Below the pieces are notes generated by a model. That model was not told the DNA's origin, made no database searches, and worked only from the letters and a program-made list of their open reading frames with translations. From the IMG/VR virus record IMGVR_UViG_3300027896_000001, positions 1 to 64,000 of that record: DNA of 64,000 nucleotides; one strand, given 5' to 3'. Origin of the DNA: a virus. Below, one piece after another: positions 57,325 through 64,000 of the stretch (its first letter is position 1; each line of letters begins with the position of its first letter). The position numbers were made by a program, and so were the translations under genes.

Positions 57325-59439
57325 ATGTATGAAGATGTAGGCGGCGGTACTATAATATCTCCTGCTACTGGAACGGGATTGCAGGGTGGAGGAAACATTC
57401 AGGTTTCTTTTTCCCGTGGCAGCATCCGTTACGACAGCCCTTTTCTGGACATGACGTCTACATTTATTCCAAGAACAATTAAAGGAATTCTTAAATTTAT
57501 TGCCGCTTATGTATGCAGTGACGGATTGTTAAGTCAATGCATAGCAAAAATGAGTGAATATCCAATTACGAATCTTATTTATAAAGATGATGACCCCTCT
57601 GCGCTTAATGATGATGAAACAATAAAAAAATGGAAAAATATTCTTGAAAATTCGATGGGAATTCTTCGTTCTCTTAAACAGGCGGGAATGGATTATCATG
57701 CATATGGAAATTCAATTGTTTCCATAAATTATCCTTTTAAAAGAATGCTGCTATGTCCAAGATGCAAGAAAAAGCATACCGCGGACGGCTTAAAAGTTAA
57801 ATTTGAAATGTTTAAATTTAAAGCGAAATGTCCAAATTTGAAATGCGGATATGAAGGAGAAATGGATGCAACCGATCTTAATACAAAAGAAATCAGCAAA
57901 CTCGGGATTGTACATTGGGATATTCTTTACATAGATATTAAATACAATTCAATTACCGGAGACCATTTTTATTACTATACAATTCCTGCCGATCTTCAAT
58001 TTGCGATTCGGCGCGGAGATATGGACATTGTAAACGGAACACGTCTTGAAATTATTCGAGCTGTTGAAAAGCGAAAACAATTAAAATTGATGGCTGATAA
58101 TGTGTTCCATCTTAAACGTCCGGCGCCACAATACATCGTGCCTGGTGAAAGAGGATGGGGAATTCCTGCCGTCATGCCTGTGCTCAAGGATGTATTTCAT
58201 ACGAAGGTTCTGAAAAAAGGAAACGAGATGATCGCATTTGATCATATCGTTCCGCTTCGTATTTTGTTTCCGGAAGGCACTGGAGACGTAAGCCCTCATG
58301 CGACAATTAATCTTTCCGATTGGCGCGCGAAAATTGAACAAGAAATACGTCGATGGAGAAGTGACCCCAACTACATATCGATAGTTCCCATTCCTCTTGG
58401 AATGCAAAATTTCAGTGGGGACGCTCGCTTGTTAATGGTGACGCCTGAAATAAAAGCAACAGAAGATACAATAATCACTGGTATGGGTGTAATACCTGAG
58501 ATTATTCGTGGAGGAGCATCGTGGTCTGGAAGTAATGTATCCCTTCGAGTGATTGAAAACAGTTTTATCAATCATCGTACCGATATGCACAGCATGATAG
58601 ATTTTATTGTTAAAAATGTATCCAGTTTTATGGGGATACCGAAAATCAGCATCAAGATGGCTGATTTTAAAATGGCAGACGATCTTGAAAAGAAAAAGTT
58701 GATGATTCAAATAGCCAGTCAAAGTGGAGCTGATTCTCTTGTTTCGAAAACTTCAGTCATGCGGGAACTTGATCTCGATCCTGATCAGGAATATAAAAAT
58801 ATTCAGGAAGACCTGAAACGCAGATTGGAATTGAAAGTTCAGGAAGCTGAAGGACAAGCAGAGGCTCAAGGAGCAGCCACGATCATTCAGGCCCTATATG
58901 CTGCCGACGCCCAGATAGAACAAAACAAACGGATGGAAATGAACCAGAATGAAGCTCTGCGGAAGCGTGATGAAGCCAACGCTAAACAAAGCCAGCAAAA
59001 TGCTCCTGGAGTACAACAGGATGTGGCTGCATTATCTCAAAAACGTGGACAAGACCCATCCATGGTATCCATACCGAACCTGATTCTTATCATTACTCAA
59101 AGGTTCGCAAAACTGGCACAATTTGATGTTGGTGAGTTTAAAATACGCATGCTGGCAATGAAAGCTGCGACTCCAAGTCTTTATGCAGAGGTTTATAAGA
59201 ACCTTAAAGAGATGAATCTTATAGCTTTAGATACATTACCTCAAGAACAAATAGAACAAATGGCTAAAAATCCCGCAGCTCAAGAGGGCGCCTTACCAAC
59301 TCACTCTCAAGGGGCAGACAACGCAGAAACGCCTGCAAGCCCTGCAGAAGCCGGGGCAGACCCAAACGTAGTTGCTGCTGAACCTGTTAGACAACTGCCT
59401 GAATCAAGGCCTCCACGTTCTTCTAAAGCCCCAATTTAG
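57325..59439 (+). CDS. Portal-like protein with an inserted Zn-ribbon
   Basis: CIAKMSEYPIT, DYHAYGNSIV, NVFHLKR, GWGIP, IITGMGVIPEII.GG.SWS, VSKTSVMREL follow the portal motif order; CPRC...CPNLKC insert. Confidence 0.7.
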   Translation: MYEDVGGGTIISPATGTGLQGGGNIQVSFSRGSIRYDSPFLDMTSTFIPRTIKGILKFIAAYVCSDGLLSQCIAKMSEYPITNLIYKDDDPSALNDDETIKKWKNILENSMGILRSLKQAGMDYHAYGNSIVSINYPFKRMLLCPRCKKKHTADGLKVKFEMFKFKAKCPNLKCGYEGEMDATDLNTKEISKLGIVHWDILYIDIKYNSITGDHFYYYTIPADLQFAIRRGDMDIVNGTRLEIIRAVEKRKQLKLMADNVFHLKRPAPQYIVPGERGWGIPAVMPVLKDVFHTKVLKKGNEMIAFDHIVPLRILFPEGTGDVSPHATINLSDWRAKIEQEIRRWRSDPNYISIVPIPLGMQNFSGDARLLMVTPEIKATEDTIITGMGVIPEIIRGGASWSGSNVSLRVIENSFINHRTDMHSMIDFIVKNVSSFMGIPKISIKMADFKMADDLEKKKLMIQIASQSGADSLVSKTSVMRELDLDPDQEYKNIQEDLKRRLELKVQEAEGQAEAQGAATIIQALYAADAQIEQNKRMEMNQNEALRKRDEANAKQSQQNAPGVQQDVAALSQKRGQDPSMVSIPNLILIITQRFAKLAQFDVGEFKIRMLAMKAATPSLYAEVYKNLKEMNLIALDTLPQEQIEQMAKNPAAQEGALPTHSQGADNAETPASPAEAGADPNVVAAEPVRQLPESRPPRSSKAPI

Positions 59440-59623: not shown

Positions 59624-59959
59624 TTATCCCACCGGCGTTCCCACCGACTGTTCCGACTGATACGGGTCAGAGTTCATTAACGCTTCGAGAACCGATTTTT
59701 CAAATGCTTTCAGAGAATTTGTCTCCAAAACCACACCGGTCTCATCGAGAATTCTGAACAATGTTTTAGGGTCAACCTCCAGATTACACACCTTTCCACC
59801 ATAACACGAATGAATAATAACTTCATTTGTTTTCTGGCCTCCAGGTTTTCCTCCGGCAGAAGGTTTACCATACCTGCAATCAATCGAGCCAATCGATGAA
59901 AATGGGACTATGAATGTCTTCATACCATTTTCGCCCAATTGGATTATGTGCAGTACCAT
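59624..59959 (-). CDS. Hypothetical protein
   Basis: ORF downstream of the Ubl operon; start uncertain. Confidence 0.55.
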   Translation of the reverse strand: MVLHIIQLGENGMKTFIVPFSSIGSIDCRYGKPSAGGKPGGQKTNEVIIHSCYGGKVCNLEVDPKTLFRILDETGVVLETNSLKAFEKSVLEALMNSDPYQSEQSVGTPVG

Positions 59960-59985: not shown

Positions 59986-60018
59986 AAATCAAGGGAGAAT
60001 TTCTTCTCCCTTGATTTT
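59986..60018 (-). terminator. Stem-loop closing the Ubl operon
   Basis: 14-bp perfect stem AAATCAAGGGAGAA-TTTC-TTCTCCCTTGATTT, ~35 nt after the Ubl stop. Confidence 0.7.
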
Positions 60019-60051: not shown

Positions 60052-60528
60052 TCAGTTGCCTTTGACGACTTGGCTGCAAATGACGCGTACTTTGCCACTC
60101 GACGGCCTTTGCAGAACGTAATCGATTTTTACAGGCTCGTTAACGCCGGCAATCCTGAATTCGAAAGCAGGATCGCCGTTGGCCCGGAAAAACGATGAAC
60201 GGTCAGCGTCGGGAAGCTGATCAAGAGTTTGTTTGATGGTATACCCGTCCATGGCGGGGAGGGTTATCCCCCTCCCTCCGCCAAGACGGAGAATTTCGAC
60301 CTCGAACGGGTCCAGGTTGCCCTTGACCATTTTGGAGATATAGATCACATCGCCATCGTACAAGGTCGTGTCAAGGTAAACGCGTTCCTGCCGGCGAGTT
60401 ACCTCGCCTTCGACGAATTCCCGTTCAGCCTGTTCGAAGAGTTTTTCCACCGTCGAATTCGGTTCGAGGGCGAAACTTTGAATCTCCGTATTCAGCTGAA
60501 CAATTTTTACTACGATATGATTTGGCAT
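60052..60528 (-). CDS. Tandem ubiquitin-like (beta-grasp) protein
   Basis: Domain 1 VKIV...STVEKLF...LYDGDVIYISKMVKGN (ThiS/MoaD-like LxDGDxI); domain 2 ends VICSQVVKGN. Confidence 0.8.
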   Translation of the reverse strand: MPNHIVVKIVQLNTEIQSFALEPNSTVEKLFEQAEREFVEGEVTRRQERVYLDTTLYDGDVIYISKMVKGNLDPFEVEILRLGGGRGITLPAMDGYTIKQTLDQLPDADRSSFFRANGDPAFEFRIAGVNEPVKIDYVLQRPSSGKVRVICSQVVKGN

Positions 60529-60564
60529 GATTTAATACCCTTTCCAGTATTTTGTTGTTATTAA

Positions 60565-61347
60565 TTACATCACTTCTGTTGAAATTGGCATAGCTAATAC
60601 TGGTTCTTCGCCGAAACATCGTAGATAGAACGTTTCAGGATATAGAGAGAATTGAACTTCATTCCACTGCATATAACCCTGATCTTTTCCACCTCTGATA
60701 TTATCGTCTCCGTACCGCATATTAAAATGTTGAATTATTCTTCCAACTGCAAGACTTGACAAAAAACTTACAGTTGAAACTATTGACTGACTTGTTCCGC
60801 ATAAGGAATTTTCAGCGACGTCATCGGAATACAACGTCTTTTTCCACTCTTCAACGTGCGCACCATTGTTCGGGTTAAACGAATAGATCCGACCATCTTT
60901 CAAACCCATTCTCGTTTCTACCAACAAATCAGTATTAAACGGGAATCGCAAGTGTTTGTCGAAGATTTCCTTCCTGCTCGACATTGTGTCAGTTAGCAAG
61001 AAAACGTAAGTGGATCTTAATAGATCCGAGTTGGTTTTGTCATCAACCATCTGATTGTAAGCCTCGATTTTGAAGCCGCATTTTCTTAAAATTATTTCAT
61101 TAAGGGCCTCAACTTTGGGCTTTCCTATGTGGCCTTCCTCATAAATCTGATTGGCTAGATTGTGAGGCTCGACCTTATCTCCATCGAACACACGTAATAC
61201 TCCCTGGCCATGGGCGGCGTCTCCCCAACCCATTTGGGCAAGAAGTAGCGCGACATACGAACCGGTCGCGCCGACCCCAATCAAGGAAATTGATTTATCT
61301 TTAATTTGTTTAGGATCGAGGAGCCCAGATTGGCGTGAATAATCCAT
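60565..61347 (-). CDS. E1-like ThiF/MoeB family adenylating enzyme
   Basis: YSRQ, IGVGATGS, FDGDKVEPHNLANQ, IGKPKVEAL, LTDTMSSR; candidate catalytic Cys in SLCG. Confidence 0.92.
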   Translation of the reverse strand: MDYSRQSGLLDPKQIKDKSISLIGVGATGSYVALLLAQMGWGDAAHGQGVLRVFDGDKVEPHNLANQIYEEGHIGKPKVEALNEIILRKCGFKIEAYNQMVDDKTNSDLLRSTYVFLLTDTMSSRKEIFDKHLRFPFNTDLLVETRMGLKDGRIYSFNPNNGAHVEEWKKTLYSDDVAENSLCGTSQSIVSTVSFLSSLAVGRIIQHFNMRYGDDNIRGGKDQGYMQWNEVQFSLYPETFYLRCFGEEPVLAMPISTEVM

Positions 61348-61348
61348 G

Positions 61349-62230
61349 TCAGAACTCCTCGTACCGTTCCATCATTCGTTTTACTTCTGCTTCCGTGGCT
61401 TCCGGGTGCAAGCCACGGTACATTTCATCTTCTTCATCCATCGCTCCTCCATTAAATTGTGGAGGTGTAGCTCCCGGAAACACCTTCGGAAGAGGAGCGC
61501 GATAATCATCACGATGATAAACAAATGGAGCCGTGTAACTTGTCGGCTCAGGAGGTATATTAATTTTTTTAAGTTCTTCGATTTTTTCTTTTATTTTTTC
61601 AGATTCCGGATCAGCTGTGCATGCTTCCATGATTTTTGCAAGTTTCAATCCATGGGCAAGGTTTGAATCCAGAACTCCTTTAATTTCTGTAAGCTTTTGT
61701 GTTAATAATGTTTCGTTGTCGAATTCCTCGGCAGACCAAACAATATTGTCAAATCTTATTTGTTTTGCATAGTCAAAGAATGAAACCGACATTAATCCGT
61801 CATTGTTAACGATAACCCTGATAACATCGGCTTTTGTCGAAGACATTCTTTCCAATGCTTGTGTATCGTCTTGACCTGAAGCGAACACTCCCATTGAATG
61901 ATGGGAATGTCCCCATAACATCATTTTACTTATATCTTCTTCGCGGCCATGTGAAAGAAGCCATTCTATTAATTTCGCTTCTCCCTCAGAGGATATCTCA
62001 CACGTAGCGGCTGACGCTAATTGGTGTTTGGGATAGAAAATATCTCTGACAAAATAAGAATATTCCGCAACCTTGTCGACAACCCCATAAAACCCAATTT
62101 CATGGGCATGTAAATCGACAAGGTTTTCAATCCATTTCAGGGAAAGCCGTGAGAAAACGATCGTCGGGGGAGTCTTTCTCTCAGGCTTTAAAATTATATA
62201 TGTTGGTGCTGTTTGCGTGTTCTTCATCAT
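61349..62230 (-). CDS. JAB/MPN+ metallopeptidase (deubiquitinase-like)
   Basis: EIGFYG plus WGHSHHSMGVFASGQD = E...HxH-x7-S-x2-D. Confidence 0.88.
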   Translation of the reverse strand: MMKNTQTAPTYIILKPERKTPPTIVFSRLSLKWIENLVDLHAHEIGFYGVVDKVAEYSYFVRDIFYPKHQLASAATCEISSEGEAKLIEWLLSHGREEDISKMMLWGHSHHSMGVFASGQDDTQALERMSSTKADVIRVIVNNDGLMSVSFFDYAKQIRFDNIVWSAEEFDNETLLTQKLTEIKGVLDSNLAHGLKLAKIMEACTADPESEKIKEKIEELKKINIPPEPTSYTAPFVYHRDDYRAPLPKVFPGATPPQFNGGAMDEEDEMYRGLHPEATEAEVKRMMERYEEF

Positions 62231-63453
62231 TGTGCGGCCGCCACTTCAACCTGTTCATGATAAAGTGGAAAATATTTTGCATGGCATCCCCACCCGTCAT
62301 CAAGATCAGGATTTTTGATAAATCTGATTAATATTTCTGAAGCCATGACAATGTCTTTTTTAGAAAAAGCGGTAAACAGTTGTTCAAACGCTTTTCCAAA
62401 ACAAACATCTCCACCATGTATGATATGACCGCCGTCCCAAGCTTCGCCGCCATATTCAATGTGGCGAGTCCTGTTTTTGATCTTTATCAGATCATGAGGG
62501 ATTTGTCCTGAGGAAAGTTCGCACAATAGGATGTTTGAATTTATTAGGATTTCGTATTTTCCAAGGTCGTATCGATTGCCGTTATTCAACACCTCTGTTA
62601 TCATATTTTTAGTCAGCAAAACGATATTTCCTGTAACATCTACATAGACTTCTTCGAGGAGGTTGTCCTCTGAATTAAGTTGGTTTATTTGTGCCAATAT
62701 TTTTTCTATTTGAGGATTGGCATTAATTGGTTTTGATAATGTTTCTATTTCGTTTTGAAGAACAATCATTCTTGAAGAAAGTTTACTGAGTTCCGCGATT
62801 CTTTCAAATAATATATTGCTTGCTGACGCCATTTGATTACGCATTGCTTTTGCAAGAATAACAGAAACTATTCCTGTGTCAGCCTTTTGATGAGCCGGAA
62901 GCAATGTCGAATATTCTTTAATAACAGCCTCTTCGCTATAATCATCTTCTTCATTGTTTCGTGGGCCATCGTCTTCACGAAGAATTGGACCACGCCGGCG
63001 CACTGTTATCGCAATATTTCCTGGTGGCGGAACAGGATGCGTTCTTTGTAGCGGAACAGGATCTGTTCTTTGTGGCGGAACAGGATGTGTTCTGCCCATA
63101 TCCAGGCCTCTTTCACGTACAGGTTCTTCAGGCTGTGGAGGCAATCCTTGCACAGCCACGTACGGGCCTTCATCCATTTCTCTTGCAGGAGCGACTTCTT
63201 CTTGCGGAGCTTCTTGGGGAGCTACATTAATATAAAAAGTATCTCCTTCTCCGCCGCTAAGAACTAATGCGCCATCTGCATGAGACGAATATTGGTTTTC
63301 AATTATGTCAGCAACCTCGTCTATATGAGCACTATCAATATCAATAACAAGATCGCTGCCGATTTGTTGCATTCCTTTCGAATATTGGAAAATATCGGAA
63401 GTTACATTGTTTATGTTAATTCCTGTATTTCCCTTAATCATTAATATGGCCAT
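62227..63453 (-). CDS. Coiled-coil protein with a C-terminal E2 (UBC)-like domain
   Basis: DLGKYEI...GHIIHGGDVCFG followed by two helices and D..G; paralogous to 63470..63988. Confidence 0.6.
   Translation of the reverse strand: MAILMIKGNTGININNVTSDIFQYSKGMQQIGSDLVIDIDSAHIDEVADIIENQYSSHADGALVLSGGEGDTFYINVAPQEAPQEEVAPAREMDEGPYVAVQGLPPQPEEPVRERGLDMGRTHPVPPQRTDPVPLQRTHPVPPPGNIAITVRRRGPILREDDGPRNNEEDDYSEEAVIKEYSTLLPAHQKADTGIVSVILAKAMRNQMASASNILFERIAELSKLSSRMIVLQNEIETLSKPINANPQIEKILAQINQLNSEDNLLEEVYVDVTGNIVLLTKNMITEVLNNGNRYDLGKYEILINSNILLCELSSGQIPHDLIKIKNRTRHIEYGGEAWDGGHIIHGGDVCFGKAFEQLFTAFSKKDIVMASEILIRFIKNPDLDDGWGCHAKYFPLYHEQVEVAAAQ
63024..63093. repeat. 24-bp tandem repeat x3 encoding RT(H/D)PVP(P/L)(Q/P)
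   Basis: GTGGCGGAACAGGATGCGTTCTTT units in the linker of 62227..63453. Confidence 0.9.
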
Positions 63454-63469
63454 GCAGACTCCTTTGCAG

Positions 63470-63988
63470 TTAAATGGTCACTCTCACCGGCAGCGCATCT
63501 GCCAGCAAATCATCAAACTTCTTTTCTGTTTCTTTTTTCTTTTCGTAAATTAAAAACTCTTCATGATCTTCGCCCAAAGCTACGGATTCAGGGACTTCGG
63601 GCCATGTATTGACATGTTGTCCGGCCCCATCAGACGTGTTTGCCGTCTGAAGGAATATGAGAATTTGATAAACCAAATCAAATAGATTTCTTTGTCTGTA
63701 TGCTTCAACCATGCCTGTTGCAAGGTTGCCATGACAAGCGTGCCCGTCTTCAAATACATGGGGCGCGTGAAATCCTGTATTCATTCCCATACCGCCGGTA
63801 AATTTTGTATTGAAAATTCGCACAGTGTTATTCGTGTTATAGGAAAAATCAAGCATACCAATGGTGATATGAAAAGTTCCAATATCGTGCCATTTTTTGC
63901 TTCTTTCATCCTTCACGTATAAATTTTTCGTATATACATGAACGGTTCCTTCACGAATATAAATTGCTGAAACTTTATTAATAGCCAT
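63470..63988 (-). CDS. E2 (UBC)-like protein, probably 5'-truncated by the window edge
   Basis: FHAPHVFEDGHACHGN resembles the HPN/H...G.IC E2 active site; frame is open to 64000. Confidence 0.65.
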   Translation of the reverse strand: MAINKVSAIYIREGTVHVYTKNLYVKDERSKKWHDIGTFHITIGMLDFSYNTNNTVRIFNTKFTGGMGMNTGFHAPHVFEDGHACHGNLATGMVEAYRQRNLFDLVYQILIFLQTANTSDGAGQHVNTWPEVPESVALGEDHEEFLIYEKKKETEKKFDDLLADALPVRVTI

Positions 63989-64000
63989 AGTGTCATTATA

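Follow-up and report, generated by a model that had tools for sequence, protein, structure and literature searches.

Does a phage carry a complete ubiquitin-like conjugation cascade of its own? The question is raised by a 64,000-nucleotide stretch of viral DNA, here called the window, which comprises bases 1-64000 of the 174,649-bp IMG/VR virus record IMGVR_UViG_3300027896_000001. Close to its end lie five minus-strand genes that appear to encode, in the order of transcription, two paralogous proteins resembling E2 conjugating enzymes (A and B), a JAB/JAMM metallopeptidase, a minimal E1 of the ThiF type and a ubiquitin-like protein (Ubl). We consider it probable that these genes specify a phage-encoded Ubl-conjugation cascade that works through cysteine intermediates, and that the operon is a core module of a lineage of phages with genomes of ~175 kb. 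An initial annotation, made from the sequence alone, had already read the locus as an E2-E2-JAB-E1-Ubl operon, and the predicted folds, the invariant catalytic residues and the conserved synteny described below support that reading.

The virus record carries direct terminal repeats and is rated 100% complete; because it is a complete virus genome, the operon lies on phage DNA, and a site on flanking host chromosome is ruled out. All five genes proposed to be tightly coupled are present in the open reading frame (ORF) list and survived a codon-level check: A and B are separated by 16 nt, B and JAB overlap by 4 nt, and the gaps between JAB and E1 and between E1 and Ubl are 1 and 36 nt. As first described, the unit converges on a portal gene (57325..59439, plus strand). 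The order A-B-JAB-E1-Ubl, followed by a small ORF and converging on the portal gene, was found in five of five IMG/VR relatives, in every sufficiently long JGI metagenome locus and in the ENA contigs with the closest homologue, which were compared by gene maps. Since this order is kept together with the portal gene across all relatives, the operon behaves as a core module inherited with the structural core and not as a recent acquisition. The claim that the phage itself owns the machinery, and the expectation that the contig is viral and that related phages have the operon, are thus borne out by the complete record and by the synteny in every relative fetched. Identity to the window proteins is 61-81% for E1, 56-76% for the portal protein, 33-68% for the Ubl, 37-59% for JAB, 35-52% for A and 24-42% for B, so that E1 is the slowest-evolving protein of the operon and the E2-like proteins are the fastest.

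When the five operon proteins were scanned with Pfam, PHROGs, PADLOC and NCBIfam, E1 alone was recognised, and none reached an NCBIfam cut-off. The E1 (60565..61347, minus strand, 260 aa) scores 75.4 bits against Pfam ThiF, for which the cut-off is 28.1 (E 4.9e-21; domain over residues 12-211), and a Pfam scan of the 174.6-kb genome finds no other ThiF domain. Over 16 sequences, two distant cassettes included, the invariant columns are G24/G26/G29 of the GxGxxG motif, R5, D55, D57, N63, Q67, K78, D120, R125 and C183. The ATP motifs and the SLCG cysteine noted at the outset are therefore both real features of the gene; G24/G26/G29 and C183 were checked by codon, and the Cys183 codon lies at 60799-60801 in its SLCG context. 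In the PDB sequence match Cys183 would fall about where C184 of ThiF aligns, by an offset that we infer. The protein consists of a single adenylation domain, with neither CxxC zinc pairs nor a rhodanese domain, a separate Cys domain or a UFD domain, and by analogy with ThiF and MoeB it is probably a homodimer. Its best sequence matches in the PDB, PaaA (9.7e-6), ThiF and MccB (3.5e-4), are weak and cover the generic Rossmann part alone; its best NCBIfam matches are ThiF/MoeB, all far below cut-off.

Such a minimal ThiF/MoeB-like E1, combined with Ubl domains that each resemble MoaD and SAMP1 (see below), could also belong to a sulfur carrier system, in which a Ubl thiocarboxylate would feed the synthesis of a thio-cofactor or the thiolation of tRNA or DNA, JAB would mature the carrier and the E2-like proteins would not conjugate; operons in which JAB, E1 and ThiS-like genes serve sulfur chemistry are known (PMC1779556, Table 1 rows 4a-4e). 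We regard this explanation as having very little probability. The lack of sulfur-transfer genes, first remarked on for the immediate neighbourhood, extends to the whole 174.6-kb genome: the rhodanese, Aminotran_5 and ATP_bind_3 models picked up no rhodanese, cysteine desulfurase or PP-loop thiolase gene in it, and the E1 has no rhodanese fusion. The tandem Ubl, moreover, resembles polyubiquitin and ISG15, and two UBC-fold proteins with invariant His and Cys are locked into the operon in every relative.

Gene B (62227..63453, minus strand) encodes 408 aa. Gene A extends beyond the window: the first E2-like ORF, initially listed as a protein of 172 aa, is cut by the window end, and the real product has 761 aa and is encoded at 63470..65755 of the genome (minus strand), the in-window part, 63470..64000, covering its C-terminal 176 residues. 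The start of gene A follows a ribosome-binding site, AAAGGAGG, and the N-terminus of protein A aligns with those of its homologues. A and B have a C-terminal domain in common (23% identity, pairwise E 2e-5), which in both proteins contains the H..H...G..C motif by which they were first picked out; read codon by codon, it comprises H343/H346/G348/C351 in B and H663/H666/G671/C674 in A, with the codons of the candidate catalytic cysteines at 62401-62403 (C351 of B) and 63734-63736 (C674 of A). A His-x7-Cys-x-Gly core is invariant, as H343/C351/G353 in 79 B-type sequences and as H666/C674/G676 in 58 A-type sequences.

The family defined by this domain is large. In a library of 1.84 billion proteins, a profile of the C-terminal domain finds 1,364 representative clusters (50% identity) at E<=1e-3, which fall into two size classes, B-type of about 350 aa and A-type of about 650 aa. 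No Pfam model describes the family, and the 137 members scanned (79 B-type and 58 A-type) gave no consistent Pfam match, nor did the 58 A-type homologues give anything consistent with Pfam and PHROGs together. Neither A, B nor the 137 homologues match the UBC/E2 sequence models (Pfam UQ_con and Prok-E2_A to Prok-E2_E); one row of the Atlas structural matches carries Prok-E2_D at a TM of 0.44. A tblastn search of 50,697 phage records with protein B gave no match. The N-terminal ~560 residues of protein A are conserved within the family and match no known domain in Pfam, PHROG and PDB profile searches.

The assignment as E2 comes from structure prediction. An AlphaFold2 (AF2) model of B built on the 79-sequence alignment has a predicted local distance difference test score (pLDDT) of 81 overall and >90 in residues 1-80 and about 200-400. 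The model comprises an N-terminal alpha/beta domain (1-79), a disordered Pro-rich linker (about 89-186), a long helix and the C-terminal domain (244-399). For residues 244-399 Foldseek returns UbcH7, UbcH8, Ubc13, UBE2S and UbcH10 (probability 0.96-0.99, E 0.02-0.1). An exhaustive VIA comparison gives UbcH10 at Z 8.0 (root-mean-square deviation, rmsd, 3.4; 122 residues aligned) and UBE2S at Z 7.8, and VIA run on the Foldseek matches gives UBE2S at Z 8.2 (rmsd 3.8 over 125 residues) among 233 chains with Z>=5. The E2 matches cover the whole UBC core (Z 7-8.2, 115-128 residues aligned), at scores that are middling given the tool's own warning that Z near 8 can reflect a common arrangement. In BFVD the domain matches a phage protein named 'Type II CBASS E2' and giant-virus E2s. 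Because the match list is homogeneous, with almost exclusively E2 enzymes, and covers the full domain, the UBC assignment is credible, and a UBC/E2 fold is predicted for the C-terminal domain of both A and B; AF2, Foldseek and VIA thus all point to the fold that the initial annotation required of its E2-like ORFs. In the model of B, the His-x7-Cys-x-Gly motif forms a loop between the last strand (337-341) and the following helix (355-364), which we take to be the same loop as that occupied by the HPN...Cys active site of E2s. Offset arithmetic, with UbcH5 residues 0-140 aligned to 246-397 and one insertion of ~18 residues, would place C351 near Cys85 of UbcH5. The confidently modelled residues 1-79 of B, for their part, find their best structural matches in a domain of Nmd3, a ribosome-export factor (Z 7.9, rmsd 2.0, 67 residues aligned), and in the ribosomal protein eL22.

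Between the E2-like genes and E1 lies the putative peptidase gene (61349..62230, minus strand, 293 aa), which overlaps the gene B stop by the 4 nt mentioned above. The E/HxH-x7-S-x2-D site said to be intact is so at the codon level (E44, H108-S-H110, S118, D121), and in 52 homologues W106, H108, S109, H110, S118, Q120 and D121 are invariant, with E44 kept in >90%. The window protein itself has no Pfam match; 21 of the 52 homologues match Prok-JAB, all below threshold (best E 6e-4). A profile of the family searched against the PDB gave coiled-coil or noise matches and no JAB structure. Among its Atlas neighbours, which are viral clusters, 19% carry Prok-JAB, and aligned by hhalign the family matches gp77 of crAss001 with a probability of 72%, the H-S-H...S-G-x-D motif lying within the alignment. 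We read the gene product, from its motif and its relatives, as a divergent Prok-JAB. JAB/JAMM peptidases are known to expose the C-terminal glycines of Ubls (PMC1779556).

What such a peptidase might act on is suggested by the last gene of the cascade (60052..60528, minus strand, 158 aa). The beta-grasp fold that had been proposed for it is recovered by AF2, Foldseek and VIA; the single domain is not, and the protein is composed of two tandem beta-grasp units, residues 1-70 and 73-157 of a model with a pLDDT of 87.7. The whole protein matches linear di-ubiquitin, polyubiquitin, ISG15 and FAT10 in Foldseek (E 1e-6 to 1e-4, probability 1.00), and the single halves match SAMP1 (Z 8.4) and MoaD (Z 8.3) in VIA, together with SUMO, ubiquitin and FAT10. 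The encoded protein ends in Lys-Gly-Asn, and Gly-Gly is absent. The same three residues stand at the end of each unit (K69-G70-N71 and K156-G157-N158) and are invariant at both positions in 29 homologues and in 12 loci of greater divergence, the lowest with 33% identity. Even the single-domain Ubls of distant cassettes keep the motif, that of L032 ending in ...AKGN and the copy in Pseudohongiella in ...AKGNS. After the last Asn, relatives either stop or continue for up to 40 residues without conservation. A fixed Lys-Gly-Asn followed by unconserved tails is what one would expect of a precursor with a constant trimming site, and the recurrence of the motif between the units suggests that both units are released, as from polyubiquitin. 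Judged from these sequences, either JAB would require the invariant Asn as its P1' residue, or the Asn would itself be the C-terminus that is activated.

The second of these options amounts to an alternative mechanism for the same cascade, in which JAB or self-cleavage at Asn would trim the precursor beyond the Asn and E1 would adenylate the Asn carboxylate, possibly via a succinimide. Asn follows Gly in all 41 Ubl C-termini compared, about half of which end exactly at this Asn and none at Gly, and whatever lies beyond it is unconserved. MccB, an E1-like enzyme, adenylates the C-terminal Asn of the microcin C7 peptide, and both MccB and PaaA act on Asn-containing peptides; that two of the best PDB matches of the phage E1 (PaaA, ThiF, MccB) do so lends the idea slight support, given that these matches are weak and limited to the generic Rossmann part. 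To our knowledge, the characterised protein-conjugating E1s all take a small C-terminal residue, Gly or, in some systems of the CBASS type (anti-phage signalling based on cyclic oligonucleotides), Ala. JAMM enzymes typically cleave after Gly and are able to take off just one residue, as in Mec+/CysO, which also counts against activation of Asn, and an invariant P1' residue of a protease would explain the Asn equally well. We therefore hold activation at Asn to be rather unlikely.

For the cascade through cysteine intermediates that we prefer, the following sequence of events may be proposed. The di-Ubl would be made as a precursor, and JAB would cleave the two Lys-Gly-Asn sites, most likely after Gly, stripping the Asn and any tail and probably also separating the two beta-grasp units. 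The ThiF-type E1 would adenylate the exposed Ubl C-terminus and then load the Ubl onto Cys183, from which it would be handed to the cysteines of the UBC-fold domains, C674 in A and C351 in B. The large, fast-evolving non-E2 regions of A and B may serve as built-in substrate selectors, making the proteins E2/E3 hybrids. The Ubl would end on target lysines, and JAB could also reverse the mark. The operon is probably expressed with the non-structural genes and would act inside the infected cell, on a host or a phage protein. A more elaborate version, with two channels in which one precursor yields two Ubls, each with its own E2/E3 hybrid, co-expressed with the replication genes to tag proteins of the host or the phage during takeover and perhaps activated at Asn in the manner of MccB, can be imagined, and we give it a small chance of being correct.

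Several observations weigh against a conjugation cascade. The E2 assignment depends on a predicted structure whose match scores are middling (best Z 8.2, Foldseek E 0.02), and the B-type and A-type sequence profiles searched against the PDB returned coiled-coil or noise matches and no E2. Searches of the whole phage genome with Pfam Prok-E2_D and with Pfam Prok-JAB gave no candidate. C351 is assigned to the E2 catalytic position from the order of secondary-structure elements and the offset arithmetic given above. The E1 lacks the canonical UFD and Cys domains that recruit E2s. No member of the Ubl family ends in Gly, and a simple 'cap' model leaves the invariant terminal Asn unexplained. The timing of expression, finally, is deduced from a promoter-like motif that is described below.

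How does the operon compare with known systems? The closest described is Bil (BilABCD, 'bacterial ISG15-like'; class 6d of Iyer et al. 2006), with which hosts defend themselves against phages. As in the phage operon, Ubl, E2, JAB and E1 are encoded by separate genes in one operon and E1 and E2 would use cysteines, the phage case being read from its sequence; conjugation by Bil proceeds via the E1 and E2 cysteines (10.1101/2023.09.04.556158). Some Bil Ubls also have short extensions beyond the conserved C-terminal Gly (10.1101/2023.09.04.556158; PMC11601596; PMC1779556). The E1s differ, BilD having an IAD-AAD-CYS architecture (PMC11601596) and the phage E1 being one 260-aa adenylation domain. 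So do the E2s: in class 6d the His is found on the C-terminal side of the Cys and none lies upstream (PMC1779556, row 6d), whereas in the two phage paralogue families a His stands invariantly 8 residues upstream. Further, the phage operon is a core module of a virus, with two E2-like paralogues that possess large extra regions and an invariant Gly-Asn end on the tag. No protein of the phage operon reached a PADLOC or NCBIfam defence model.

Type II CBASS offers a second comparison. Cap2 is the best PADLOC match of the E1 adenylation region (1e-12 to 1e-13 against the Cap2 'E1-E2' models, over the N-terminal nucleotide-binding residues ~13-113), and the two systems have in common a JAB partner (Cap3) and cysteines in E1 and E2. 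The phage operon has a dedicated Ubl, its JAB and E2 are not matched by the Cap models, and because it contains neither an E1-E2 fusion nor a CD-NTase gene it is not a type II CBASS. The operon could instead be a counter-defence, with JAB stripping the Ubl or cGAS conjugates made by the host through Bil or type II CBASS, or with the phage Ubl and E2s acting as decoys. The host Bil system attacks phage tails by means of its Ubl (10.1101/2023.09.04.556158), the Cap2 match of E1 fits this idea, and the contrast between B and the N-terminal parts of A (24-42%) and E1 (61-81%) is of the kind that an arms race would be expected to leave. A decoy or a deconjugating role, on the other hand, needs no complete cascade with invariant E1 and E2 cysteines and no processed di-Ubl; JAB, E2 and Ubl match no PADLOC defence model; and in all relatives the operon is passed on vertically as a core block and is not a patchy accessory set. 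The initial annotation had offered three possible roles, namely modifying host proteins, excluding competing phages, and acting as a decoy for host Ubl defence or reversing it. The core-gene conservation of the operon and the promoter-like motif that it has in common with replication operons would fit a function inside the infected cell and lower the likelihood of a pure decoy, and we consider counter-defence quite unlikely.

Bub (class 6e, also '6E'), composed of a polyUbl, an E2/RWD-like protein and a JAB-E1 fusion, resembles the phage operon in having a multi-domain Ubl precursor (PMC11601596; PMC1779556), and its JAB-like peptidase domain cleaves directly after the conserved Gly (PMC11601596). 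It differs in using Tyr/Ser oxyesters with no catalytic Cys, in having its peptidase fused to E1 and in possessing an extra Ser-His protease family (PMC11601596). The phage operon is not a Bub system, since E1 and the two E2-like proteins all keep an invariant Cys and JAB is encoded apart from E1. With polyubiquitin, ISG15 and FAT10 the phage Ubl has in common a head-to-tail tandem of beta-grasp units in the predicted structure and a cap residue beyond the last Gly; yeast UBI4 polyubiquitin ends in an extra Asn. Identity to these proteins is 8-14%, and the phage tag has a single Gly in place of Gly-Gly, an invariant cap and two divergent units.

Among phages, the pair TAPI (gpI, a Ubl) and TAPK (gpK, JAB with NlpC/P60) of lambda and T1 provides a phage Ubl with a C-terminal Gly next to a JAB (PMC1779556, row 5). 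The lambda pair lies inside the tail module and has no E1 or E2; the operon described here is a full cascade on the non-structural strand. The Ubl and JAB might nonetheless assist virion assembly in the manner of lambda gpI/gpK, with the UBC-like domains as non-catalytic scaffolds of the RWD/UEV type. Phage tail-assembly pairs of Ubl and JAB are known (PMC1779556, row 5), the operon always adjoins the portal gene, and the RWD proteins Knl1, FANCL and Ltn1 are among the fold matches (Z 6-7, VIA). Against such a role, both paralogue families keep the His and the Cys without exception, which is unexpected for non-catalytic UEV/RWD domains, all adenylation residues of E1 are present, and the operon stands on the strand opposite the structural block, under a promoter-like motif of the replication class. 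A lambda-like role that dispenses with an E2 relay fits poorly with the invariant catalytic residues and the promoter class, and to us seems very improbable.

The motif in question, TGWAATAACWATWATRG, is found 37 nt upstream of the gene A start (genome 65792-65808, minus strand), where it is conserved in five relatives. With <=2 mismatches the genome contains 10 copies, all on the minus strand, compared with 1.6 expected over both strands; the in-window copy lies at 1589-1605. One copy heads an operon of an exonuclease/PD-(D/E)XK protein and an SNF2 helicase, another lies a few kilobases upstream of an MCM/Toprim primase-helicase gene, and copies also precede genes for a retron-type reverse transcriptase (genome 101518-102588, minus strand) and a class II ribonucleotide reductase (genome 148143-151142, minus strand). 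The latter gene matches LAGLIDADG and intein-splicing domains and appears to be interrupted by an intein. The distribution suggests that TGWAATAACWATWATRG is probably the promoter of a class of non-structural genes, and its presence at the operon would place the Ubl genes in the non-structural transcription class despite the adjoining portal gene.

Homologues of part of the cascade exist in other phages. ThiF-like genes annotated as 'thiamine biosynthesis protein' are found in crAss-like, Flavobacterium and Xanthomonas/Erwinia jumbo phages, and among the matches listed by tblastn the E1 shows 26-30% identity to those of crAss001, of the Xanthomonas/Erwinia jumbo phages and of the Flavobacterium phages. 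This E1 search matched 81 records in all, and the 30 listed did not include Vibrio phage D69 or Salmonella phage Arash, two phages related by their portal proteins. In crAss001 the homologues of E1 and JAB are adjacent, as gp76 ('thiamine biosynthesis protein ThiF') and gp77 ('metalloprotease'); no E2-like domain was detected in the neighbours gp75 and gp78 by hhalign with a shallow profile of 4 sequences, and no Ubl was identified. This suggests that a related E1-JAB pair could be studied in culture, in crAss001. A crAss-like affiliation of the present phage, raised by the ThiF matches, was rejected, since the relatives of its portal protein are Vibrio phage D69, Salmonella phage Arash and Bacillus phage G.

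In the literature that we searched, which is incomplete and no proof of absence, neither a phage-encoded E1-E2-JAB-Ubl cascade nor the E2-like family is described. Bacterial Ubl conjugation is presented there either as a means by which hosts fight phages (Bil, type II CBASS) or, in the case of Bub, as an orphan pathway, and the involvement of phages is limited to the lambda-type Ubl and JAB pair of tail assembly. What is new here is a full, predicted E1-E2-JAB-Ubl cascade as the core module of a virus, built in part from families for which Pfam has no model. If it is active, phages would post-translationally tag proteins of the infected cell, and host takeover, counter-defence and superinfection exclusion become questions to ask of it; it would also be a compact orthogonal tagging system, with a 260-aa E1 and a Gly-Asn tag, and a new branch in the evolution of ubiquitin signalling.

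Downstream of the Ubl gene, the portal gene ends the plus-strand block of the window; its product has its closest tblastn match in Vibrio phage D69 and also matches the annotated portals of Salmonella phage Arash and Bacillus phage G. The 14-bp hairpin that the initial annotation placed at the end of the unit is present, 35 nt downstream of the Ubl stop on the minus strand (59986-59999 and 60004-60017, 100% complementary, 4-nt loop). It does not appear to close the unit: it has no T-run, and a sixth ORF and a better terminator-like site lie beyond it, so that it is possibly an attenuator or an RNA-stability element. The better site is a stem of 8 pairs, 5 of them G-C, followed by a T-run (59593-59574, minus strand), and the transcription unit probably ends there. 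The small ORF between the hairpin and this stem (59624..59959, minus strand) has 111 aa as listed, an internal ATG giving a shorter form, and matched no family in Pfam, PHROGs, PADLOC or NCBIfam; it may belong to the unit as its sixth gene.

The more distant or fragmentary loci differ in some respects. The cassette of L032 has the order Ubl-E1-JAB-E2-like. The Pseudohongiella copy (L038; Pseudohongiella sp. chromosome OZ242251.1, 7065-10639) encodes a 70-aa Ubl, a 536-aa protein, an E1 with 38% identity and a JAB. Numerous small ORFs surround this cassette, which is possibly a prophage. A 4.5-kb contig from a bin assigned to a Methanobacteriota metagenome-assembled genome from Lac Pavin sediment (L037) contains a close relative of the operon, with an E1 about 79-90% identical whose reading frame is split into pieces of 60 and 168 aa, and is probably a mis-binned phage fragment. 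A small ORF between Ubl and portal is found in most relatives that reach that far, with weakly conserved sequence, L020 and L022 having ORFs of similar size.

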